Shown in pieces: positions 616 through 50,700 of a stretch of DNA of 64,000 nucleotides (positions are counted from its first letter, which is position 1; each line of letters opens with the position of its first letter). The notes under the pieces were generated by a model. It ran no database searches, was not told the origin of the DNA, and saw only the letters and a list, made by a program, of their open reading frames with translations. The position numbers and the translations under genes were made by a program. The stretch covers positions 9,823 through 73,822 of the forward strand of contig JAHFKW010000001.1 in NCBI GenBank assembly GCA_023245145.1. Direction: 5' to 3'. Source of the stretch: Candidatus Staskawiczbacteria bacterium. GTDB lineage: Bacteria > Patescibacteriota > Minisyncoccia > Minisyncoccales > Staskawiczbacteraceae.

Positions 616-1167
616 ATGACTCCGACCAAAACGTATGTGGAACCTGGCTGGAAACGCCCTCCGTCGAAAGATGCGATACTCGACGAGGAAACGTATCGCA
701 AAGTCTTGCCCATCTGGGTCAAGGCTTGCGTGGATGTGATTCTCTACCTTCGAGCAGCAGACGCCTCATGGAGAATGGTGATTGCCAAACGTAAAATCCA
801 ACCCATGATGGATTGGTGGATCTTCGGTGGCCGCATCTTCGCGACTGATGAAAGCCTGCAACACGCTTTGGTGCGCAAGCTCAAAGAAGAAATCGGGCTC
901 GCCGACATCAATCCCGACAGAATCCCCAACGAACCGTTACGGATTCAGATGTACAAGTGTGCGCCCGATAACTCTGTCATTCTGGCGCCGGCATTCTGCC
1001 TGGAAATCACTCCGGCAGAGTACCAACAAATGCAGGCTAATCTGGCTGACAGTCCCGAGTATTCTGATCTGAATGCCCTGGCACCATGGGCGATTGCCGG
1101 TAATAACGGCTTCCACGAAGCCCTACGCGACTACGCAAGTTCCCTGGCAAGGCACCTCGGAATCTAA
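616..1167 (+). CDS. gmm: Nudix hydrolase, GDP-mannose mannosyl hydrolase-like (WcaH/NudD family)
   Basis: Nudix box FGGRIFATDESLQHALVRKLKEEIGL. The block KRKIQPMMDWWIFGGR aligns with WcaH GKRTNRPAQGYWFVPGGR. The gene lies between fcl and gmd. Its G+C is visibly higher than its neighbours. Confidence 0.6.
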   Translation: MTPTKTYVEPGWKRPPSKDAILDEETYRKVLPIWVKACVDVILYLRAADASWRMVIAKRKIQPMMDWWIFGGRIFATDESLQHALVRKLKEEIGLADINPDRIPNEPLRIQMYKCAPDNSVILAPAFCLEITPAEYQQMQANLADSPEYSDLNALAPWAIAGNNGFHEALRDYASSLARHLGI

Positions 1168-32281: not shown

Positions 32282-33238
32282 TTATAACCTATTTTTAATC
32301 TTTTCAGTATTCCCATGTTTTAACAACCCCAAATAGGAACTTATTGTTTGCAAAGAGTTACTTTTCTTTAATCTTTTTAACATCCTTTGCTTAGTTTTAG
32401 TGCGAATAACTTTGTGGTCGTTAAAATTCACCCACCCTAAAAAATCTACACCTGAAGAAAAGGTTTTAATGAACAGTTTATCAGGATGCAAAGATAATTT
32501 TAATCTACTTTGTAAAAATTCATTGATTAATGGAATTAAGCTTTCTAAATACTGCCTATCTTCTGATAAAAACACAAAATCGTCCGCGTATCTTACATAA
32601 TGTTTTATGCGTAAAGTATGTTTTACAAACTGATCAAACTCATTCATATAAATGTTGCAAAAAAGCTGGCTGGTGAGATTACCCAGCGGCAGGCCGGTGC
32701 ACGGCCTGCCGCTGTCAAAACTGCCGATAATGTTAGCCAGCAGGTTTATGATATTGCTATCCGGAATATATTTTTCCAATATTTCCAACAATATACGCTG
32801 ATCAATAGAATGAAAAAACTTTTTGATGTCGCACTTGAGTACCCAACAGGCATGGGTATGGTTTTTTGAGACTATTCGGGCAAAAGAGTTAAACTGCGAA
32901 ATGGCTCGGTGAGTACCTTTATTATTCCGACAGGAATATGAATCAAATATAAAACGCTCGTCAAAATAGTCATACAGCACCCGATACACCGCGTGGTGCA
33001 ACAATCGGTCACGCACGGTGGCTTTATGGATAGTGCGGGGTTTAGGGTCATTGATTTTAAACTCTTGGTAGCCACCGTGTTTATATATTCCGCTTGCTAA
33101 ATCTTGATGAAGTGCTAGTATGTTATCCATTAGGTTGAATTGAAATTCTTGGACGTCTTTTTTCATTTTCTTTCCAATCAAAAAATCCTGCCAAGCTAGC
33201 AATAAATTTTCAATACTAATTAAATATTCATAATTCAT
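32282..33238 (-). CDS. Diversity-generating retroelement reverse transcriptase
   Basis: RT motifs PKPRTIHKATVRDRLLHHAV, GLPLGNLTSQLFCNIYMNEFD (the DGR-specific [ILV]GxxxSQ replacing QG), YVRYADDFVFL (YADD) and SGVDFLGW. Start set at Met17 by alignment to DGR RT N-termini (NLxxAW). Confidence 0.85.
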   Translation of the reverse strand: MNYEYLISIENLLLAWQDFLIGKKMKKDVQEFQFNLMDNILALHQDLASGIYKHGGYQEFKINDPKPRTIHKATVRDRLLHHAVYRVLYDYFDERFIFDSYSCRNNKGTHRAISQFNSFARIVSKNHTHACWVLKCDIKKFFHSIDQRILLEILEKYIPDSNIINLLANIIGSFDSGRPCTGLPLGNLTSQLFCNIYMNEFDQFVKHTLRIKHYVRYADDFVFLSEDRQYLESLIPLINEFLQSRLKLSLHPDKLFIKTFSSGVDFLGWVNFNDHKVIRTKTKQRMLKRLKKSNSLQTISSYLGLLKHGNTEKIKNRL

Positions 33239-33631
33239 ATGACAAATTCCTTTAACCCCCCCCCATCCCTTTTGCCTATTTTGCAAAAAGCCAAAGAGGC
33301 TTATTTAGTTTGGTATCAATATTACCTGATTGTGCCAAAAACACATAGACATACTTTGGCACAGAAAATTGATGAATTGTTTACCCACTGTATAGAAGCC
33401 ATAGTGACTGCCAGTTTTCTATCCAAAGAAGAAAAGTTACCCTACGTACGCCAAGCTATTAGAAAAACTGACACCATTAAAATCTTTTTAATGATTCTCT
33501 GGGAAACAAAATCTCTCAACGACAAAAAATATATTTATATTTCTTTAAAAGTAAATGAGATTGGTAAGATGCTGGGTGGCTGGCAGGGACAATTAATAAA
33601 AAACTCTCCCAAATTAGGAGAGAAAAAATAA
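33239..33631 (+). CDS. avd: Avd-like accessory variability determinant (four-helix-bundle, TIGR02436-like)
   Basis: 130 aa helical protein ending EIGKMLGGWQGQLIK, which is the EIGKML[GS]GW signature of Avd/four-helix-bundle proteins. Central LIVPKTHRHTLAQKIDELF resembles bAvd IAQSIPRKHGVAREMF. Immediately followed by the TR. Confidence 0.55.
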   Translation: MTNSFNPPPSLLPILQKAKEAYLVWYQYYLIVPKTHRHTLAQKIDELFTHCIEAIVTASFLSKEEKLPYVRQAIRKTDTIKIFLMILWETKSLNDKKYIYISLKVNEIGKMLGGWQGQLIKNSPKLGEKK

Positions 33632-33636
33632 GAGAG

Positions 33637-33763
33637 TTGCGGGGACGGCAAAGGCGAAACCGTTGTTCGCATTCCAGTTGTCATCCGGCCTGTCATAGTA
33701 GGCATTGAGCCTCGGACCATCATTGCGGTTCGTGCCAAGCAAGTTAGGGTTGCCGTCGGAATT
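33637..33763 (-). repeat. DGR template repeat (TR), adenine-bearing sense on minus strand
   Basis: 127-bp near-identical copy of 34129-34255. At all 11 mismatches TR has A (minus strand), within AAC/AAT Asn codons when read in the target frame. Non-coding, 6 nt after the avd stop. Confidence 0.85.
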
Positions 33764-34021
33764 GTGCAAAATATCACCCATACCACTACCCCTTAAGCGC
33801 TTGTGCTTTCAGGGCTGTATCTAATTCGGTAGCTAAACTACCATAATATTTTGCACCAAGTATCTTTATTTTTAGAATCGTCGTATATCCAAATTCGTAA
33901 AGCGAATTTTTCTCTACTTTCAACCTTAGTCAAAAGTATTCTCAATATACAAAAATTAGCTTCGGCAGCCTGAAATCGTAATTTCGAGCGTATTCGCCTA
34001 ACCGAAATTACTATATCATAT

Positions 34022-34059
34022 TTTTTACAAAAAAACTGCCCTCATCTGCTGATGAGGGC
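34022..34059 (-). terminator. Stem-loop with T-run about 70 nt downstream of VR (terminator / DGR-associated hairpin)
   Basis: Minus strand: GCCCTCATC-agca-GATGAGGGC followed by AGTTTTTTTGTAAAAAA. Confidence 0.55.
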
Positions 34060-34120
34060 CGAACTAAGTTCAAGAAGATCAAGGGCCGACGAGGCCAAAG
34101 TCTCAAGAACAAAGTTCTTA

Positions 34121-34792
34121 TTAGATACTTGCGGGGACGGCAAAGGCGAAACCGTAGTACGCATGCCAGTAGTCATCCGGCCTGTCATAGTAGGCATAGA
34201 GCCTCGGACCATCATAGCGGTCCGTGCCAAGCAAGCCAGGGCTGCCGTCGGAATCTTCGATGGGCTCATGCATCGTAATGATCCATGTCAAGCCCATCTT
34301 GGCAATCTCCTCGTCCGTGAACAGATCGCGGATGAGACAGCCAACTTCGGCTTCTGGCTTTTGCCACTTGCGCGTTTCTTCGGCCTCCTTGCGGATGGCT
34401 TTGGTACGACGCTCATCGTTGGTATCCCAGAACTTTCCTGGGATAACGGCGATGTTGTAAACAACACCGCTCGTCGCCCTGAACTTTTTTGAGCGAAGGA
34501 CACTCTTGGCGTAGCTGGACAGATAGATACCCTTCGCTTCAAAGTGAGCAATCCATTGCTCACCCGTTCTGCCGTTAGACGTGACGGTGAAACGGATGGT
34601 ACCGTCGGCATCCAGGTGCCACAAGCAAGTCGGCTCTTCTGGAATCTTGCAAAGGCCCAGCAAGAACCTTTGCCGATCTTCTGGATGCTCGATCCACCAC
34701 TGCAAAACGTTGACCGGGATTTTCGTCACGATCACGTTCAGCGTCTGGATCAAAACCGCGAGAAATTGAAGGATCTGCTCAATCTTAGCCAT
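34121..34792 (-). CDS. DGR target protein with C-terminal variable region (C-type-lectin/FGE-like ending), no signal peptide
   Basis: ORF ends ...DSDGSPGLLGTDRYDGPRLYAYYDRPDDYWHAYYGFAFAVPASI. The VR covers the last 45 codons. Start at ATG 34790-92, with an AAAGGAA SD 8 nt upstream (the track ORF uses an upstream TTG at 34855). Visibly G+C-rich. Confidence 0.75.
   Translation of the reverse strand: MAKIEQILQFLAVLIQTLNVIVTKIPVNVLQWWIEHPEDRQRFLLGLCKIPEEPTCLWHLDADGTIRFTVTSNGRTGEQWIAHFEAKGIYLSSYAKSVLRSKKFRATSGVVYNIAVIPGKFWDTNDERRTKAIRKEAEETRKWQKPEAEVGCLIRDLFTDEEIAKMGLTWIITMHEPIEDSDGSPGLLGTDRYDGPRLYAYYDRPDDYWHAYYGFAFAVPASI
34129..34255 (-). repeat. DGR variable region (VR) at 3' end of target gene
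   Basis: Pairs with the TR. Differences from the TR are T/T/G/T/T/T/G/G/G/G/C on the coding strand opposite TR adenines. Invariant GC-rich 3' end (GGTTTCGCCTTTGCCGTCCCCGCAA) shared with the TR, as an IMH-like element. Confidence 0.85.
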
Positions 34793-34911
34793 GGCGTTTT
34801 TTCCTTTCGTAGGTGTTCGCCAACTATTGCTTATAATCACGCCAACATGACGCAATCACAGCATACCTTAATCATACACCCTGCAAGCAGGCTTGTCAAG
34901 GCCACCCTCTT

Positions 34912-36420
34912 TTAATACCCAATAAACTGAGATTTTACCTTTTTATTAAAAAGCCAAATAATGATTGCCAGCGTCACATAATATATAAAAATCCATACCC
35001 ACGATATGCCGTTAATCGATTTGACCGCCCAAGGCTCTCCAAAAATATCCACCACTTTCATAAAATAGAGCATGATAAAGTATGTCGGCAGAGAAAAAAT
35101 AAACCCCAAACCGAACGAAAAAATCCCCAAAAAAGCGGCTAAGAATCCAAAGATCATCACGGCATCAATAATGGGAATAATCAGTAAATTGGTAATGGGC
35201 GCCACCAGCGAAATAGTTTTAAAATAATACATAATTATCGGCAAGGTAAAGAGTTGAGCAGCCAGGGTCACGGAAAGAATACTTAAGAAAAATGAGGCTG
35301 TTTGATTATTCCAAAATACCAACAGATAGTCTATGGCCGGCTTACCATAAATAATTCCCAGTGAAGCTAAAAAGGAAAGTTGAAAGCCTACATCGTAAGC
35401 TAAAAGCATGGGGTTTTGCAAAAGCATGAGCGTTGCAGTTAACACAATAACACGGGCCGTGGCGTTTTGTCGGCCAAACTTTTGAGCCAATAAGAAAACA
35501 CTGGCCATAATGGCCGACCGAATGCCTGAAGCAGGAAAAGCAGCGATAACGATATAAAGCCAGATGAAAACAATTGAGATATAAAAAGCCTGACCGCGCC
35601 ACAATCCAAGCGCCAGCAATGCTGTCATTAAAATAGAACTTAAAATCACCACATTGGAGCCGGAAATAGCGGTAATATGTGTCAGGCCAGTGGCGCGAAA
35701 CTTTTCTTTTACTTCCTCTGCCATATTGGCTGTCCCACCCAACATAATGCCTTCTATAATAGCACTGTGAGGCGCAGAAAATTGAGTCCAAATGGATTTT
35801 TTCAATGTTGTTTTAAAGCTTAGTAATTTTTGGTACAAAGATTCTGACAGCGAAAGTACTTTAGCGTTTGACATTAATTCTATTTTAGGAAAATCCATCA
35901 CAGAATATATGCCATTTTTCATTAAATAATTTTTGTAATTAAAATCCGCAGTGACAAAAGGAGTTTTTAGTTTGCCAGTTATTTTTATTTGATCCAAGTA
36001 TTTATATTCGGGATATAGACTCGTTGTTACCAAAACCACACTTTGGGTATTATCAATTTTGACTGATAACTTTTGAGAAGTCTCTCTAATATCCGGCGCG
36101 TCAATAATTTTGCCCGTCAAAGTGATCTTATCAGAGTTATCATTTAATATGCTCATTGAATCATTCAAAACGGCAAATTCAGAAACTTGCAGACGCGTGA
36201 CGGCTAGGATTAAAAATAATAGGCAAAAGCCGATAATCGCCGCTTCTTTTTTTGCCTGCCCCAAGTGAAATCGAAGGGTGAAAAAAGAAGCGGCGATACA
36301 AACCACCCCCAGCAACAAAAAAGCCCAAATAAACATTGGGGGGATTTTTAGTAGCGACTGCAAAGCGATGCCGATAATAAATGAAATGCAAAAACAAAAA
36401 AGAATTTTTGAAGGCGTCAT
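34912..36420 (-). CDS. comEC: ComEC/Rec2-family competence channel protein (DUF4131 + competence domain, no metallo-beta-lactamase domain)
   Basis: About 10 TM. Conserved ...THITAISGSNVVIL... competence-domain block. Start overlaps the ftsZ stop (ATGA). Confidence 0.7.
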   Translation of the reverse strand: MTPSKILFCFCISFIIGIALQSLLKIPPMFIWAFLLLGVVCIAASFFTLRFHLGQAKKEAAIIGFCLLFLILAVTRLQVSEFAVLNDSMSILNDNSDKITLTGKIIDAPDIRETSQKLSVKIDNTQSVVLVTTSLYPEYKYLDQIKITGKLKTPFVTADFNYKNYLMKNGIYSVMDFPKIELMSNAKVLSLSESLYQKLLSFKTTLKKSIWTQFSAPHSAIIEGIMLGGTANMAEEVKEKFRATGLTHITAISGSNVVILSSILMTALLALGLWRGQAFYISIVFIWLYIVIAAFPASGIRSAIMASVFLLAQKFGRQNATARVIVLTATLMLLQNPMLLAYDVGFQLSFLASLGIIYGKPAIDYLLVFWNNQTASFFLSILSVTLAAQLFTLPIIMYYFKTISLVAPITNLLIIPIIDAVMIFGFLAAFLGIFSFGLGFIFSLPTYFIMLYFMKVVDIFGEPWAVKSINGISWVWIFIYYVTLAIIIWLFNKKVKSQFIGY

Positions 36421-37340
36421 TACGATTTGGTTGCAATCACCGTTATCTTAATTTCTCCTTTCTTAAGTTCAGTATTCTTAACGGCGCCAAAAATAATCTG
36501 GGCTTTGGCTTCTACATGTTGAGTAATAACTTTGGCGGCATCTTGAATTTCCTGCAATGTTACATCAGAACCCGAAGCATTAAATAAGATACCTTTTGAG
36601 CCTTTAATAGAAAAATCCAGCAAAGGTGAATTAATAGCCTTGGTGGCGGCTTCAATCGCCCGATGTGGTCCCCTGGCTACCCCCGTGCCAAATAATGCTT
36701 GACCGGAATTCTTCATAATAGAAATAACCGATGCAAAATCAATATTAATAATACCGGGAGACAGAATTAAATCCGTAATCCCCTGGACAGCTTCGCGCAG
36801 TATATCGTCACAAATTTCAAAAGCGTTGGAAACAGTGGTTTTCTCATCAATAATTTTAAGTAATTTATCATTTGAAATAACCAGTAAAGAGTCTACGTTA
36901 CTCCGTAATTGTTCCAGACCCTTTTTGGCTACTTCTGCTCGCTGCTGACCCTCAAAAGAAAAAGGCGTAGTTACTACCGCCACCGTCAAAATTCCCAAGC
37001 TTTTAGCTATTTGAGCTATCACCGGCGCGGCTCCTGTCCCTGTTCCTCCGCCCAAACCACAAGTAACAAACACCATATCCGAGCCTTTAATAATTTCCGT
37101 TATTTCTTTCTTGTTCTCTTCTACAGCCGCCCGACCCTGGGTTATGTCCATACCTGCCCCCAAGCCACGAGTGATATGTTGACCAATCAAGATTTTATGA
37201 GGCACTTTGCAAAAATGTAACGCCTGAACATCGGTATTGACAGCTATTAATTCAATGCCTCGTACATCACATCTGGCAATTCTAGCAATTGTATTAGAAC
37301 CAGATCCACCCACCCCTAGCACTTTTATTTTCGGTGACAT
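36420..37340 (-). CDS. ftsZ: Cell division GTPase FtsZ (short form)
   Basis: Tubulin signature GGGTGTG, plus KVLGVGGSGSN and NTD. Confidence 0.9.
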   Translation of the reverse strand: MSPKIKVLGVGGSGSNTIARIARCDVRGIELIAVNTDVQALHFCKVPHKILIGQHITRGLGAGMDITQGRAAVEENKKEITEIIKGSDMVFVTCGLGGGTGTGAAPVIAQIAKSLGILTVAVVTTPFSFEGQQRAEVAKKGLEQLRSNVDSLLVISNDKLLKIIDEKTTVSNAFEICDDILREAVQGITDLILSPGIINIDFASVISIMKNSGQALFGTGVARGPHRAIEAATKAINSPLLDFSIKGSKGILFNASGSDVTLQEIQDAAKVITQHVEAKAQIIFGAVKNTELKKGEIKITVIATKS

Positions 37341-37350
37341 TGTTTTGTTT

Positions 37351-38601
37351 TTACGGTATGAATACTCTAAACATCCTCTTCAATTTCAGGTTCAAATCTT
37401 TTAAAAATCCTGTAGAAAACCCCAACATAGCCCCAGTATCAGGACTGTCATAATCTGCACTGCCTAAAATAAGTCCTACCACCGTTGCCAAAGCCGAGTC
37501 TTGCTCCAGACCATTAATCCCCTTGGGTACGCCCACTTCTACGGAAAGCTTTAAAACATGCTTAGCTAATTCTTTTATCTTAGGCAATTTGGCACCACCG
37601 CCAGTCAAAACTACGCCACCGGGCAGTAATTCGTGCCGGCCGATTTTTTTTAATTCTTTTTGTACCAAATCCATAATTTCAGAAACGCGAGGCTCTATGA
37701 TATCCACTAAATTCTTTTTAGTAAACGCTATTTCTTCAGAAGCTTCAAATACTTCAATTTTTTGTTTATCTTTTTTATCAACCATCTTTCTTCTTTTTTC
37801 ACTGCTGGAAACCATACAAGTACCATATTCTTTTTTGATGTTTTCGGCTGTTGCTACATCCGTTTTAAGTCCAATGGCTATATCGTTAGTAATATTAGCC
37901 GATCCCAAAGGGAAAATAGCCAAGTGAATCAAGTCTCCTTCGTCAAAAACGGCTAAACTGGTGGTGGAGTGACCAATGTCAATCAGGGCCGCTCCGATTT
38001 CTTTTTGCTGACGGGTTAAACAAGCTTGGGCAGCGGCAATCGGCGAAGGAATAACATCATCAATTTGCAATTTGGCATTGAGCACAGCTTGGGTCAAATT
38101 AATAAAATATAACTGAAAATAGCACAATAAAACCACCTTGGCTTCAAGCCTTACGCCAGTTAGGCCCAACGGTTGCTTAATACCTTTTTGCTCATCAATA
38201 ATAAACTCTTTGGGAAAGACATCTAATATTTCTTCGTTGAGAGGAATGTTAATGGATTTGGTAGCTTCCAAAACTCGGTCTATATCTTCCTGGGAAATAA
38301 TTTTATCGGCGCGCGAAACAGAGATCAATCCGTCCGATGGGGCTACATACAAATGACTTCCGCCAATATTGACGAATACAGCACTAATTTTACGACCGAT
38401 ATCTTTTTGAACACCATCAATTAACAATTGGATATTTTTGGCGGTTTCTTCGGCGTTAACCACTGCTCCACGACGCAATCCAAACGAAGGAATTTGAGCG
38501 TACGATAAAACCTGCCATTCATTACCATTTTTTTCAGCTACCAATATCTTAATAGTGCTGGTACCAATATCCAGCCCTGTAACAATTTGATTTTTGGCCA
38601 T
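37351..38601 (-). CDS. ftsA: Cell division protein FtsA
   Basis: Actin-fold ATPase: GLDIGTSTIKILV, DIGHSTTSLAV and the SHS2 insert. Confidence 0.85.
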   Translation of the reverse strand: MAKNQIVTGLDIGTSTIKILVAEKNGNEWQVLSYAQIPSFGLRRGAVVNAEETAKNIQLLIDGVQKDIGRKISAVFVNIGGSHLYVAPSDGLISVSRADKIISQEDIDRVLEATKSINIPLNEEILDVFPKEFIIDEQKGIKQPLGLTGVRLEAKVVLLCYFQLYFINLTQAVLNAKLQIDDVIPSPIAAAQACLTRQQKEIGAALIDIGHSTTSLAVFDEGDLIHLAIFPLGSANITNDIAIGLKTDVATAENIKKEYGTCMVSSSEKRRKMVDKKDKQKIEVFEASEEIAFTKKNLVDIIEPRVSEIMDLVQKELKKIGRHELLPGGVVLTGGGAKLPKIKELAKHVLKLSVEVGVPKGINGLEQDSALATVVGLILGSADYDSPDTGAMLGFSTGFLKDLNLKLKRMFRVFIP

Positions 38602-39021
38602 TTATTTTTTAACTACTTTTAAAAAATATGCTTCCTGTTTGACAAACATTTTTTCCTCATCTATTTTTGAAATTTCGTGGTCATAACCCAGCACATGTAA
38701 TAATCCGTGAATGAGCATGTATGCCATTTCTTTTTTTAAACTCCGGTTTGAATCTTGCGTTTTTTCTTTGATGTATTCCGGGCACAAAATCACTTCCGAA
38801 CACTCATCTTTAAAATCAGATATTTTCTCAAAACTCAATACATCGGTGGGTTGGTCTTTGTGACGATACTGTTTATTGAGTTTTTGAATTTCAGCAGAAT
38901 TAACAAAAGCCACAGACACATTTTCCTTTAATCTATTTTCGCCTTTTAAAACTTTTTTTGCAACCCCCAAAAAGAAGGCTTTATCCACAGCGAAATTGGT
39001 TAGGTTGTTGATTTCAATCAT
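38602..39021 (-). CDS. ybeY: rRNA maturation endoribonuclease YbeY
   Basis: HGLLHVLGYDH metal-binding motif. Confidence 0.9.
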   Translation of the reverse strand: MIEINNLTNFAVDKAFFLGVAKKVLKGENRLKENVSVAFVNSAEIQKLNKQYRHKDQPTDVLSFEKISDFKDECSEVILCPEYIKEKTQDSNRSLKKEMAYMLIHGLLHVLGYDHEISKIDEEKMFVKQEAYFLKVVKK

Positions 39022-39058
39022 GATGCTCTATTTTACAACATATTTCAAAATTAAACAA

Positions 39059-39092
39059 AATCGGCGCTCCGATGTACATCGGAGCGCCGATT
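39059..39092 (-). terminator. Perfect 16-bp inverted repeat hairpin (AATCGGCGCTCCGATG-ta-CATCGGAGCGCCGATT), terminator candidate
   Basis: Seen directly in the sequence, flanked by A/T-rich runs on both sides. Confidence 0.5.
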
Positions 39093-39104
39093 AAAAAATA
39101 CTTT

Positions 39105-39281
39105 CTAGAGTCCCAATTGGCTGGTATACACACGGAAAATATACGGCAACGCGACCAAGGCTATCAGCAGTGGCGCCACAAACGTCACCAGTGTCACAAT
39201 CAGCGTCCACAAAAAATACTTTCGGGTTTTTTCCACCGATTTATAAATCGCATCTAACTTTTTCTGCAAATCTTCTTCCAT
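39105..39281 (-). CDS. Small membrane protein (58 aa), translationally coupled to yqeY (TAATG)
   Basis: Reverse-strand ORF MEEDLQKKLDAIYKSVEKTRKYFLWTLIVTLVTFVAPLLIALVALPYIFRVYTSQLGL. Below the 60-aa track cutoff. One TM. Confidence 0.35.
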   Translation of the reverse strand: MEEDLQKKLDAIYKSVEKTRKYFLWTLIVTLVTFVAPLLIALVALPYIFRVYTSQLGL

Positions 39282-39799
39282 TATTTTAATAATTCTTTGA
39301 CCATCTCGCTTACCACCTTTCCATCCGCCTTGCCTTTTATTTTTGGATTTAATTCGGCCATCACTTTGCCCATGCTTTGCCCCGCGGAGCCAGCAGGCGA
39401 AGTGGGGTCCTTCATTACTTTATCAATAGCTTCTGTAACTAGTACTTTAATCTCCTCAACCGACAACTGCTCGGGCAAATATTTTTGCAAAATGGCAATC
39501 TCATTTTTTTCAGACTCGGCTAATTCTGGTCGGCCACCTTGCAAATACAACGCAATCGCATCCCTCCTTTTTTTAATTTCACTGCTTAATACGCTGATTA
39601 TTTCATCATCACCTAATTCAGATTCAGCCAACAAAGCTTCCTCCGTTTTGGCCGGATCATCTTTTGAAATTTTGTAGCGCTTTTCCGTTTGCTTAGCCTG
39701 AACCGACGCCATTACCCCACGCAAAACCGTAGAAGTAAGCTGATCCTTAGCCTTCATCGCCACCACCACATCACTTTTGATTTGTTGTTTTAAAGACAT
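39281..39799 (-). CDS. yqeY: GatB/YqeY domain protein
   Basis: Lys/Glu-rich helical protein with a C-terminal GatB_YqeY-like region (SAGQSMGKVMAEL...GKADGKVVSEMVKELL). Confidence 0.7.
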   Translation of the reverse strand: MSLKQQIKSDVVVAMKAKDQLTSTVLRGVMASVQAKQTEKRYKISKDDPAKTEEALLAESELGDDEIISVLSSEIKKRRDAIALYLQGGRPELAESEKNEIAILQKYLPEQLSVEEIKVLVTEAIDKVMKDPTSPAGSAGQSMGKVMAELNPKIKGKADGKVVSEMVKELLK

Positions 39800-39845
39800 T
39801 TTATCTAATTTCTAATGATTGAAAATTTAATGAAAATTGAAAATT

Positions 39846-40079
39846 TTAATAACGCCCCATTTTTACCTTCGGCTTATCTAATTTATCTTGCTTGATTTTT
39901 TCGGCCTTCAAAATAACCCTCCGCACGGCTGATCTCTTCTTGGCTAACTCTGACTTCGCTTTTTTGTAAAACTGTTTTCCGCGTACTTCCATCAAAATAC
40001 CACTGCCCCTGACCGTTTTGGTAAAACGATGCACTAAATTTTGCGAACTCTCTTTTTCTTTTTTATTTACCTGAAGCAT
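39846..40079 (-). CDS. rpsU: 30S ribosomal protein S21
   Basis: NLVHRFTKTVRGSGILMEVRGKQFYKKAKSELAKKRSAVRR aligns to the S21 core ([23 protein letters not shown]). Confidence 0.7.
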   Translation of the reverse strand: MLQVNKKEKESSQNLVHRFTKTVRGSGILMEVRGKQFYKKAKSELAKKRSAVRRVILKAEKIKQDKLDKPKVKMGRY

Positions 40080-40098
40080 AATTGTAATTTGTGATTTT

Positions 40099-41388
40099 TT
40101 ATTTGTTTATTTTCGACTTCATCTCTTCCACGACCTTGTCTAATTTAATTTCTTTTTGAACACCGCTATCCATATCACGAAGTGTAATAAAATCTTCCAG
40201 TGCTTCTTTTTGTCCAAAAATTAACACCCACCGAATCCCCATTTTATTGGCCATACCCAATTGACTACGCAATGAATCCTTGGAAAAAGATTCGGCCACC
40301 GGAATTTTCGCTGATCTGAATTCTTCAAACAATTTTAAACTTTTTCTTTTGGCCAATTGACCCAATTGCGCCAAAAATATTTGTGCTCCTCCTTCTTTTT
40401 TCTTGTCCACCTTCACTTCTTTTTCCGCCATCAACTCCATAATCCTGGAAATCCCAATCCCCACCCCACAGGCCGGGGTATCTTTACCCCCCAATAATTT
40501 AACCAAACCATCGTATCTTCCCCCCGAAGCCAAGGCACCATACTGCATCCCCACCTCACTTTTTTCTGAAATTTCAAAAACGGTTTTAGTGTAATAATCC
40601 AACCCACGAACCAAATAAGGATTTATGGTGTAAGGTAATTCCAATTCATCCAAAAATTCCAGTACTTGCTTAAAATGGGCGTGACACTGTTCACATAAAT
40701 GATCTACAATTTGCGGTGCGCCGGCTTTAACTTGCTGACATTTTTCTTCTTTACAATCCAAGAGACGCAGCGGATTTTCTTTTAATCTTCGCTGACAATC
40801 AGAGCATAAAGAAGATCTTCGGGTTTTGAAATATCCGGTTAAAATCTTTTTAAAATACGGACGGCATTCAGAATCTCCGATACTATTTACCTCAATGCTG
40901 ATATTTTTAAAACTCAAATCTTTCAAAATATCATAACTCATCTGAATAATCTGTCCGTCCACCGAAGCATTTTTCTCTCCCAACACCTCAATACTGGCCT
41001 GCCAAAACTGTCGGTATCTGCCTTTTTGTGGCCGATCGTGCCTAAAACACGGTCCCGAGGCCCATAATTTTACGGGTTGTGGCAAAGTAAACATGCCGTG
41101 CTCGATATAGCTTCTGACAATTCCGGGAGTGTGTTCAGGACGCAAAGCCACCAAATCCTGACCCTTGGTTCTAAAAGCGTACATTTCTTTTTCTACGACA
41201 TCGGAAGTTAATCCAGCACTTTTGGAAAACACTTCTGCCGTTTCCAAAATTGGCGTTTCAATTTTTTGGAAGCTGTAATAATTAGCAATGCCTTCCACCG
41301 ATTTTTGCACCTTCTTAAAATAGGCCTGATTTTCGGGCAAAATATCGTGCATGCCAGCTAATGTTTGTAATTTTAATTTTTGAGTCAT
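40099..41388 (-). CDS. hisS: Histidyl-tRNA synthetase
   Basis: Class II motifs: GMHDILPE, motif 2 FRHDRPQKGRYRQFWQ, and an anticodon-binding C-terminus. Confidence 0.9.
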   Translation of the reverse strand: MTQKLKLQTLAGMHDILPENQAYFKKVQKSVEGIANYYSFQKIETPILETAEVFSKSAGLTSDVVEKEMYAFRTKGQDLVALRPEHTPGIVRSYIEHGMFTLPQPVKLWASGPCFRHDRPQKGRYRQFWQASIEVLGEKNASVDGQIIQMSYDILKDLSFKNISIEVNSIGDSECRPYFKKILTGYFKTRRSSLCSDCQRRLKENPLRLLDCKEEKCQQVKAGAPQIVDHLCEQCHAHFKQVLEFLDELELPYTINPYLVRGLDYYTKTVFEISEKSEVGMQYGALASGGRYDGLVKLLGGKDTPACGVGIGISRIMELMAEKEVKVDKKKEGGAQIFLAQLGQLAKRKSLKLFEEFRSAKIPVAESFSKDSLRSQLGMANKMGIRWVLIFGQKEALEDFITLRDMDSGVQKEIKLDKVVEEMKSKINK

Positions 41389-41393
41389 ATATA

Positions 41394-41981
41394 TTAGTAA
41401 GCTGGATCAAGGATTAAAGAAACATGTGAAACGGGAAAAAGTCTGAAAACGGCTCGGCCAATAATGTCATTTTTGGGCAAAATTCCCCAGCGACGTGAAT
41501 CGTAAGAATATGGTCGATTGTCTCCCATTACAAAATAATCATCTTTGGCTAAGGTCAAATGCACACTACCGTCAGTAAAAAACCCGGGTAAATACTTTTT
41601 TTCATCCAGCACTATATTTTTTCCATCTTTGGAAACGGTAATTTTCCCATCGGTAATATCCAATGTTTCTCCGGGCAGACCAATCACCCTTTTAATAAAT
41701 CGCTGGGTTACATCCAAAGGATATTTAAAAACCACCACATCTCCCCTGGCAGGACTGGAAAATCGGTAAGAAAATTCGTCAACAATTAGGTAGTCCCCGG
41801 AGTGAAAATTGGGCACCATGCTGTCACCCTTGACAATAAACGGCTGAAACAAGAAATACCGAATAGGCAGTACAATTACCGCTGCAACAATAAGGATTTT
41901 TAGAATTTCCCAAACCAAAAGAGCATACTTTTTAAATACGCTTTGGTTTTTTGGGACTATTACGGGAGTATTTTCATCCAT
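41394..41981 (-). CDS. lepB: Signal peptidase I
   Basis: GDSMVPNF Ser box, KRVIGLPGE Lys box and GDNRPYSYDSRRWG. Confidence 0.9.
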   Translation of the reverse strand: MDENTPVIVPKNQSVFKKYALLVWEILKILIVAAVIVLPIRYFLFQPFIVKGDSMVPNFHSGDYLIVDEFSYRFSSPARGDVVVFKYPLDVTQRFIKRVIGLPGETLDITDGKITVSKDGKNIVLDEKKYLPGFFTDGSVHLTLAKDDYFVMGDNRPYSYDSRRWGILPKNDIIGRAVFRLFPVSHVSLILDPAY

Positions 41982-49945: not shown

Positions 49946-50199
49946 TTTTATACCCCAGAACAAGAACTGTTGACTATTTCACGAAGTAAAGAAACCCTAC
50001 CATTTTTACACAAAAAAGTCCAGTGCCAATTGAAAAATAGGGCAAAATATGGCAGAATGAAAAAGTCCAGCCTGGGTGGCGTAACAGCAGCCGCGATGGA
50101 CTCAAAATCCATTGTCTTTACAGACGTGTGGGTGCAATTCCCACCCCAGGCACCGGTGTAGACACAATACGTTCTTTTTCAAGGAAAGTGAGATTTCTG

Positions 50200-50700
50200 A
50201 TGATGTACGGACTGAAAGACATCGAACAATTCTTTTTCGATGCAATGAGAATTGGCTATGCGGCCAACCCCAAAGAAACGACCCTGATAGACCTGCCAGG
50301 GTCGAAGGTCATCATCATCCAGGACAGAGGCTTCAAAATGGTTGACCTCTGGTTCGTCGGCGGTAACGACAAAAGCGCTGGCAGTACAATGATTTTCGCA
50401 GACAACAGGCTCGTTTGGAAAATGGATTACCGTGGGCAATACCAAAAGGAGGAAATCGATTTTCTGAAGTCAGCCCTGCGCGCAGAATACAACAAAGACT
50501 ATGTTCAAAGCGCGGCACCGGAATTCTTCCGAGGCTGTCGCGGACCTCTGTTATTTCTGGGAAGCAACGGATTGGCCTACACCAACAATGTCAAGCAAGG
50601 AAGCACCTTTTACCAATTCGAGGGCCGTGAAGAGATTGTCTCCAGAACAGCCGGTCTGGTGGTGGGGCATCACGATTACGAGGGCATTCTACTACAATAG
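50200..50700 (+). CDS. Hypothetical protein on a G+C-rich insert, divergent from the XRE regulator
   Basis: SD AAGGAAAGTGAG before ATGATG. MMYGLKDIEQFFFDAMRIGYAANPKETTLIDLPGSKVIIIQD... No recognisable domain. Hairpin and T-run terminator at 50723-50749. Confidence 0.45.
   Translation: MMYGLKDIEQFFFDAMRIGYAANPKETTLIDLPGSKVIIIQDRGFKMVDLWFVGGNDKSAGSTMIFADNRLVWKMDYRGQYQKEEIDFLKSALRAEYNKDYVQSAAPEFFRGCRGPLLFLGSNGLAYTNNVKQGSTFYQFEGREEIVSRTAGLVVGHHDYEGILLQ

Follow-up and report, generated by a model that had tools for sequence, protein, structure and literature searches.

Positions 32282-34792 of a 64-kb stretch of DNA from Candidatus Staskawiczbacteria bacterium (the window, by which we mean the whole stretch that was analysed) very probably hold a complete and recently active diversity-generating retroelement (DGR) of the type specific to Patescibacteria, in which a target gene, a template repeat (TR), the accessory gene avd and a reverse transcriptase (RT) are laid out in the order target-TR-(avd)-RT, known as architecture B3. 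The DGR itself is ordinary for its clade, its kind being already known as common in ultra-small Patescibacteria; newly seen, and well supported by the alignment of related cassettes, is a structured 5' leader with ten covarying helices that flanks the TR. In elements of this class, the RT and pentameric Avd copy the TR RNA into cDNA, misincorporating opposite template adenines, and the cDNA then replaces the variable repeat (VR) of the target gene. To our knowledge, DGRs are the most extreme natural protein diversifiers, and bacteria of the Candidate Phyla Radiation (CPR) carry them at high density; the mechanistic knowledge of which we are aware all comes from one phage element, with a gene order unlike the CPR one. 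In the window, mutagenic homing would rewrite up to ~20 codons at the C-terminal face of a small protein of C-type-lectin fold, giving access to ~1e18 variants.

The TR (33637-33763) and the VR (34129-34255), both on the minus strand, form a direct repeat of 127 nt in each copy, offset by 492 nt, and differ at 11 of the 127 positions. An earlier reading of the window from its letters (the original prediction) had located this pair and placed all 11 mismatches at TR adenines of the minus strand, and we confirmed it: the TR base is A at every mismatch, the VR base is T (five), G (five) or C (one), and, with 32 A in the 127 nt of the TR, the chance that 11 random mismatches would all fall on A is 5.8e-8. 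Read in the target frame, the TR contains ten AAY codons (180, 184, 186, 191, 193, 199, 208, 210, 212 and 213), and the VR recodes all ten, to D, S, G, D, Y, Y, Y, H, Y and Y in that order, in agreement with the predicted change of AAC/AAT Asn codons to D, S, G, Y or H. A stop codon cannot be reached by any substitution of A in the TR, and the theoretical VR repertoire is ~1e18 proteins. The VR does lie at the C-terminal end of the 223-residue target, as predicted, where it covers codons 180-222, about 43 codons instead of the last 45. Weak similarity runs for 9 nt past the 127-nt core, with three non-A mismatches (33630, 33634 and 33636), as would be expected if TR and VR diverge at their ends, the initiation-of-mutagenic-homing sites (IMH*/IMH); over its final 27 nt, which are rich in G+C, the repeat does not differ between the copies, and divergence at non-A positions sets in after that. 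Between the VR and the terminator hairpin at 34059-34038, the only inverted repeat is a short AT-rich one (~34119-34105). Searches of the 64-kb window with the TR (blastn) and with the target (tblastn) gave no second target, remote VR or third repeat copy.

The RT gene (32282-33238, minus strand) encodes 318 residues, ATG 33238 being the most likely start rather than TTG 33286, and carries the LGNLTSQ and YADD motifs that the original prediction had read in it. It matches RVT_1 with an E-value of 3e-25. In a search for structural relatives its best solved relative was 8ub7 chain A (8e-42); group II intron RTs reached 2e-17 at best, and retron RTs no better than 1e-5. The catalytic D215/D216 and I181/G182/Q187 match those that the cryo-EM paper names for the phage bRT and, since 8ub7 chain A carries D215/D216, I181/G182 and Q187, it can be identified as the Bordetella phage bRT, in line with the RT expected from the original prediction. 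By its motifs, LGNLTSQ for (I/L)GxxxSQ and YADD for YxDD, and by its closest solved relatives, the RT is assigned to the DGR lineage. It has at least 8000 homologues at E<1e-20; among the matches listed, the named ones are from Patescibacteria, and the close homologues of both RT and target that bear names are all from Patescibacteria.

The avd gene (33272-33631) lies on the plus strand, opposite to the TR, RT and target, an orientation that the original prediction had left unmentioned. Its 119 residues are counted from TTG 33272, a start also called on a sister contig (see below), and an alternative upstream ATG at 33239 is less likely. The product matches Pfam bAvd with an E-value of 4e-11 (43.7 bits; gathering score 40) and NCBIfam DivGenRetAVD with 3.9e-18, aligned from residue 1 of the 119-residue form, so that the Avd-like gene of the prediction is indeed present. 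The avd stop codon (33629-33631) falls just before the TR as had been stated, at 5 nt from the TR 3' end instead of 6.

That the element has been active recently emerges from a comparison with the independently assembled sister contig L001 (ENA ERZ27297344), which aligned to the window over 12,672 bases. The two differ by 11 substitutions, every one of them in the VR (34155-34198) and at a TR-adenine position, and by one indel, a single C in the run of C at 33256-33264 between RT and avd. This argues strongly, though indirectly, that mutagenic homing in this element is recent, and supports the active hypermutation that had been claimed; three other assemblies carry exactly the VR of the window. 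The C-run itself, nine bases in the window and one base longer in L001, lies in the 33-nt gap between the divergent starts of RT (ATG 33238) and avd (TTG 33272), and the difference in length may be genuine, within a promoter region, or may be an error made in assembling a homopolymer.

By the window coordinates, the TR is followed by avd on the reverse strand and then by the RT, with the target upstream. This is the order of architecture B3, TR-(avd)-RT, which makes up 90% of the CPR set (Wu et al. 2018, NAR 46:11), and the earlier view that the class of element is not new is thereby upheld. A Patescibacteria-restricted DGR clade (clade 2) has targets typically without transmembrane or other recognisable domains, and small soluble targets lacking a recognisable domain are the norm in CPR DGRs (Roux et al. 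2021). Relatives of the target numbered 181 in GTDB species genomes, and 80 loci were fetched; approximately 45 of these hold the same cassette, with avd inverted and TR/VR mismatches biased to adenines. In these ~45 cassettes the avd stop lies 0-25 nt from the TR and the avd start 50-90 nt from the RT, and the B3 order with the inverted avd is kept in all of them.

The original prediction had treated the VR-TR spacer as empty. We found its 365 nt to contain the target terminator, a promoter-like box of the extended -10 form and a structured leader of ~240 nt, all on the minus strand. The predicted promoter of the TR RNA, TGATATAGT, is at 34010-34018, with a predicted start near 34003, and the leader extends over 33764-34003. 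In an alignment of 42 cassettes (MAFFT), the 290-440 nt between target stop and TR are conserved base by base, and the order along the TR strand is likewise conserved: small hairpins and the target terminator, the promoter-like box, and the leader. A TGnTAnAnT or TATAAT-like box occupies the same alignment position in related cassettes, 225-240 nt upstream of the TR, and the leader starts ~8 nt past it. RNAalifold, run on this alignment, gave 55 pairs in ten helices, 42 of the pairs with compensatory changes. Helices P1 (34003-33995/33967-33958), P2 (33988-33981/33976-33969), P3 (33951-33944 with 33889-33876) and P4 (33938-33928/33925-33915) form the first part of the leader; they are followed by P5 (33856-33845/33775-33764), which encloses P5a (33842-33837/33833-33828) and P5b (33815-33805/33798-33788). 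P5 has 12 pairs, of which ten covary, and ends one base before the TR, the TR beginning 1 nt after its 3' strand. Just before P5 lies a candidate cis-primer strand (33856-33873), made up of the purine-rich AAAAATAAAGA (33873-33863), U (33862) and ACTTGG (33861-33856), the last of which is invariant in the 42 sequences.

The covariation was compared with shuffled alignments and with alignments in which the partner strands had been slid. Of all leader cells, 96.3% were paired, compared with 84.0% after shuffling (none of 500 shuffles reached the observed value) and 35-49% after sliding. Pairs with changes on both sides numbered 43, compared with 28.0 (shuffled) and 17-22 (slid), and cells with changes on both sides numbered 349, compared with 97 and 42-66, respectively. 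Neither the leader nor the module 3' of the TR described below had a match in Rfam, the only gathering-level match in the window being a tRNA, and a permissive scan of 33550-34150 gave matches at chance level only (E >= 0.2).

The distribution of the leader was followed with a covariance model, R1, built from its 3' half. R1 found every cassette at 80-119 bits, and loci outside the training set at 48-101 bits; it had no match in ~30 loci with orphan copies of the target. The leader and the 3' module, together with adenine-biased TR/VR pairs, also occur at loci L087-L090, where the targets belong to two other families, B and C. A DNA motif drawn from the leader alone, GATACTTGG N12-13 GGCATT N3-5 ATGCC, matched at least 120 metagenome stretches and gave no match in IMG/VR viral contigs. 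Eighty of the matched metagenome loci were fetched: in 60 there is a TR ~100 nt downstream of the motif and a VR of at least 90 nt at 305-570 nt upstream, 12 are cut by contig ends and three are without a VR. Across the 60, 895 of 976 mismatches (92%) fall at TR adenines, A making up 24% of TR bases. The targets at the motif loci represent at least four families (C, 21; A, the family of the window target, 18; B, three; D, three). To judge from these sequences, the structured RNA belongs to the RT/Avd core and not to the target.

Directly after the TR, and antisense within the last ~12 codons of avd, is a further conserved module (33595-33636, minus strand). It consists of a pyrimidine linker, CTCTCTTATTTTTT (33636-33623), the hairpin CTCTCC-TAATTT-GGGAGAG (33622-33604), which a scan listed as terminator-like, and a T-run (33603-33595). 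The linker begins where the TR/VR homology ends (...CGCAA) and has the consensus CTCTCTTCATTT. Hairpins with a G+C-rich stem of 7-10 bp, followed by TTTTGTTTT, are found in all ~45 related cassettes; the hairpin helix is paired in 92.7% of cells, compared with 80.8% after shuffling (0/500) and 37-63% after sliding, and has double changes in seven of its eight pairs. The same bases encode both the hairpin and the tail of Avd (K-x-N-S-P-x-x-G-E-K). In the survey of Handa et al. (2024, 10.1101/2023.10.23.563531), in which CPR elements are assumed to carry elements like those of the phage spacer (Sp) downstream of the TR, an Avd-binding stem-loop lies directly downstream of the TR, with an 11-bp stem and a tetraloop in the phage and mostly 9 bp across the survey; the window hairpin has the same form.

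Taken together, we infer from sequence that the TR is the middle part of a stand-alone non-coding RNA of ~410 nt, which spans ~34003 to 33595 on the minus strand and has an extended -10 promoter of its own. By analogy with the phage RNA, the hairpin 3' of the TR would serve both as Avd-binding stem-loop and as terminator, and cDNA synthesis would be halted by helix P5, acting as the stop duplex. Priming would fall to the purine strand just 5' of P5, which, like Sp47-56 in the phage, would provide the priming nucleotide while paired with the linker after the TR; a cDNA extended from the last A of this strand would begin 3-4 nt beyond the point where TR/VR homology ends. In most loci the purine strand and the linker are complementary in a single conserved register.

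The order of elements in the phage RNA is stopA (the end of avd), TR, Avd-binding stem-loop, primer strand (Sp47-56, priming A56), 2 nt, stopB (Sp59-70), a short stem-loop, adenosines, the thumb ring and the RT-binding stem-loop (Handa et al. 2018; 2024, 10.1101/2023.10.23.563531); the thumb ring is single-stranded. In the window the order is P1-P4, the purine strand (AAAUGAAGA; 33873-33863), UACUUGG, the 5' strand of P5, 2 nt and P5a, then a single-stranded segment containing A, P5b, a single strand, the 3' strand of P5, the TR, the linker UCUUCAUUU, the stem-loop and the U-run. In both RNAs, the bases immediately 5' of the TR pair with a stop-type strand that has a primer-like strand a few bases away and a short stem-loop right after it, and another stem-loop lies directly 3' of the TR. 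These likenesses lead us to put forward, tentatively and as a possibility somewhat short of an even chance, that the template RNA of a large Patescibacterial DGR clade is a circular permutation of the Bordetella phage DGR RNA, the chain being opened elsewhere. The priming strand, the stop-duplex strand, the short stem-loop with its adenosines and the RT-binding stem-loop would then all lie 5' of the template, only the Avd-binding stem-loop/terminator staying 3', and such an arrangement would go with the inversion of avd.

Several observations weigh against this account of a recently active element with a stand-alone, permuted template RNA. The diversification is deduced from two consensus assemblies, and Avd scores 65.7 bits against DivGenRetAVD, short of the curated cut-off (80). 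Consensus motifs and conservation are the basis on which the promoter, both RNA ends and termination at the U-run are predicted; the bases of the U-run code for conserved Avd residues as well, and the RNA could read on through antisense avd and bear Sp-like elements in that part. The primer:linker duplex is paired in 91.8% of cells compared with 89.8% after shuffling (1/500) and 49-62% after sliding, with five double-change cells, and a sub-group of cassettes (L012, L037, L038 and L065) needs a different register. As to novelty, the CPR DGR literature searched makes no mention of a structured RNA between target and TR, and as far as that search reached the leader is apparently undescribed; earlier CPR DGR work may note one. 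A more radical objection would be that the element is a fossil, its repeats and genes remaining after homing had stopped and its TR/VR differences being old. Decayed relatives do exist (the VR is fused to the TR tail in L017 and L066, L062 is truncated, and L068 has a leader and TR without RT or Avd), and three assemblies share the window's VR exactly. We find this objection barely credible, however, because the window and its sister contig are identical over 12.7 kb apart from the 11 TR-adenine positions of the VR, with no substitution elsewhere, the RT is full length with its catalytic motifs, and the TR keeps all ten of its AAY codons.

The two remaining alternatives accept an active element and concern its RNA. 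In one, the leader is real and lies outside the reverse-transcription machinery, as a regulatory or stability element such as a sensor on the TR RNA or a 3' untranslated region of the target. The link of the leader to RT or Avd binding is indeed only an inferred one, and its first half (P1-P4) has no counterpart in the phage DGR RNA, but the leader always occurs with a TR and is absent from the ~30 orphan target copies, comes after the target terminator and promoter box, ends its last helix one base before the TR and is kept across four target families, travelling with the RT/Avd core; a role confined to regulation is, on this evidence, improbable. In the other, the TR RNA continues past the U-run: a single transcript takes in the TR, antisense avd and the RT, the elements for priming and RT binding follow the TR as in the phage, and the hairpin serves only to bind Avd. 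We consider this unlikely, although not to be dismissed lightly, given that downstream Avd-binding stem-loops and stop duplexes were found in 207 of 278 DGRs, CPR elements included (Handa et al. 2024), that the avd-RT gap of 33 nt leaves little room for an RT promoter and that only weak promoter-like sites precede the RT. Against it, the G+C-rich stem runs straight into TTTTGTTTT in all cassettes, as in an intrinsic terminator; the bases adjoining the TR on its 5' side are already taken up in P5, where ten of 12 pairs covary with an upstream and not a downstream partner; and the survey of Handa et al. covered only 40 nt upstream of the TR. Partial read-through is compatible with both termination at the U-run and the read-through view.

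The target gene (34121-34792, minus strand) encodes 223 residues, with N-terminal helices followed by a C-type-lectin-like domain. It has a promoter-like site, TTGACA-17-TATGAT, at 34871-34899 (minus strand), which is a consensus match at 11 of 12 positions, and a predicted intrinsic terminator with a 9-bp stem followed by a T-run at 34038-34059 (minus strand), kept at the same place in the family alignment. The target had no family match in Pfam or NCBIfam. The C-type-lectin fold, shared by formylglycine-generating enzyme (CLec/FGE), which had been expected from its sequence was recovered in a structure model, in which the VR-bearing domain adopts this fold. Target residues 7-25 (34718-34774) form a hydrophobic N-terminal helix, ILQFLAVLIQTLNVIVTKI, with a Kyte-Doolittle mean of 1.82; such a helix occurs only in the window lineage (the window, P0001 and P0002), other family members all being below 1.5, and may be a membrane anchor gained in that lineage.

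The composition of the target sets it apart from the rest of the element. Its G+C content at third codon positions (GC3) is 0.67 (0.66 outside the VR), compared with 0.39 for the RT, 0.33 for avd and 0.35-0.40 for neighbouring genes. Among 76 related loci (L002-L086), 70 have a target GC3 above that of the flanking genes, with a mean excess of 0.25 (Wilcoxon p 1.7e-13). The GC3 of the RT resembles that of the host (mean difference -0.02); target GC3 is higher than RT GC3 in 34 of 35 cassettes, and target families B and C follow the same high-GC3 pattern. Adenine depletion was considered as the cause of the high G+C content of the target and was ruled out, since at its third positions C is nearly doubled and A and T are both depleted. 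Only two other GC3 outliers were found among the 59 open reading frames (ORFs) of the window, 616-1167 (plus strand, 0.61) and 50128-50700 (plus strand, 0.57), with C at ~0.35 of third positions. Both were ruled out as hidden DGR targets, 616-1167 being NUDIX-like and 50203-50700 encoding DUF5680. The NUDIX-like and DUF5680 genes were probably acquired; the latter abuts a tRNA-Leu gene (50070-50154).

The RTs nearest to that of the window (66-72% identity) are those of L087-L090, where the targets belong to the unrelated families B and C, and the RTs serving the window's own target family, A, are only 56-65% identical to it. In a neighbour-joining tree of 39 RTs, the window RT and those of L087-L090 group with 98% bootstrap support, nested among family-A RTs. 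Because the window RT groups with L087-L090, closely related cores serve different targets, and this suggests that target and TR have been exchanged between related RT/Avd/RNA cores. Orphan target copies, with no TR, leader, Avd or RT within 8 kb, were seen at L002, L004, L021, L023, L026, L030, L033, L040, L044 and ~20 other loci. In three genomes that also bear a cassette, the C-terminal regions of the orphans are 78-82% identical to the TR, and the mismatches fall at adenines in 13/24, 17/22 and 16/29 cases, a partial bias; the orphans may be remote or former targets.

Some further features of the repeats and their surroundings were noted. A 55-residue ORF (33614-33781, minus strand) spans the TR and is a degenerate, Asn-rich copy of the target C-terminus, with 66% identity to residues 174-223; because of this resemblance the TR looks like a relic duplication of the target 3' end, and in some relatives the TR-target similarity reaches further upstream. 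In three collapsed cassettes (L017:1050-1141, L066:8582-8648 and L062:900-1007), the target 3' end runs directly into a TR-type linker and hairpin, with the terminator, promoter and leader gone, which is the product expected of recombination between VR and TR; L062 retains only a 60-nt stub of the TR. Locus L090 has the same neighbourhood as the window (HisRS, YqeY, YbeY, FtsA, FtsZ and ComEC), with its DGR between YqeY/UPF0259 and YbeY; the window DGR sits after ComEC (region compared, 32282-41400), so the cassette occupies different sites in related genomes. The 21-kb contig L092 (ENA ERZ27280176 k141_10257482) stops 271 nt past the target stop codon, within the VR-TR interval. Assemblies are expected to break in this way at near-identical repeats, and cassettes of this kind may be under-represented in those built from short reads.

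These results show recent DGR activity in the wild from public assemblies alone, and they attach to the TR a covarying RNA domain of ~240 nt, present in ~45 species genomes and at least 120 metagenome contigs independently of the protein being diversified. The leader sequence can be used to locate template repeats and the targets that they serve, and the model built on it is a concrete, testable one for cDNA priming in B3-type elements. If true, the permutation would define a new RNA family and would explain cDNA priming in most CPR DGRs. For the evolution of targets, there are signs of exchange between closely related RT/Avd/RNA cores, and target GC3 is far above that of the target's own RT and of the host genome.

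Among known systems, the closest are the B3 DGRs of the CPR (Wu et al. 2018; clade 2 of Roux et al. 2021), which share the target-TR-(avd)-RT order with avd reversed, are likewise chromosomal, cellular and found in Patescibacteria, and have similarly small targets, most family members lacking a transmembrane segment or recognisable domain; for the DGR proper, the window element does not differ from them in any essential respect. The fold class of the VR domain is shared with the CLec-fold variable proteins of other DGRs (Mtd, TvpA, archaeal AvpA and Legionella LdtA/Lcl-type domains), in which the variable residues likewise lie within the last ~45 residues. The Bordetella phage BPP-1 DGR (mtd-avd-TR-brt) has a homologous RT with the same catalytic and template-contact residues, an Avd, adenine-specific mutagenesis and a CLec-fold target, as well as a stem-loop directly 3' of the TR (the window-type stem being 7-10 bp) and a duplex at the TR 5' edge. 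It differs in that its avd is upstream on the same strand, in that its host is a phage, compared with a cell for the window element, and in that a 140-nt spacer 3' of its TR contains the primer (Sp A56), stop strand, thumb ring and RT-binding stem-loop; in the window, by contrast, the 3' flank is ~55 nt long and ends in a U-run, a large structured domain lies 5' of the TR, and both strands of the TR-adjoining duplex are upstream. If the primer model is right, the retron msr-msd has the same topology, in that the template is preceded by the priming nucleotide and by protein-binding stem-loops, and the sequence 3' of it pairs with a strand from the 5' side. Retron cDNA, however, undergoes no adenine mutagenesis and replaces no gene segment, and the window RT groups with DGR RTs rather than with those of retrons.

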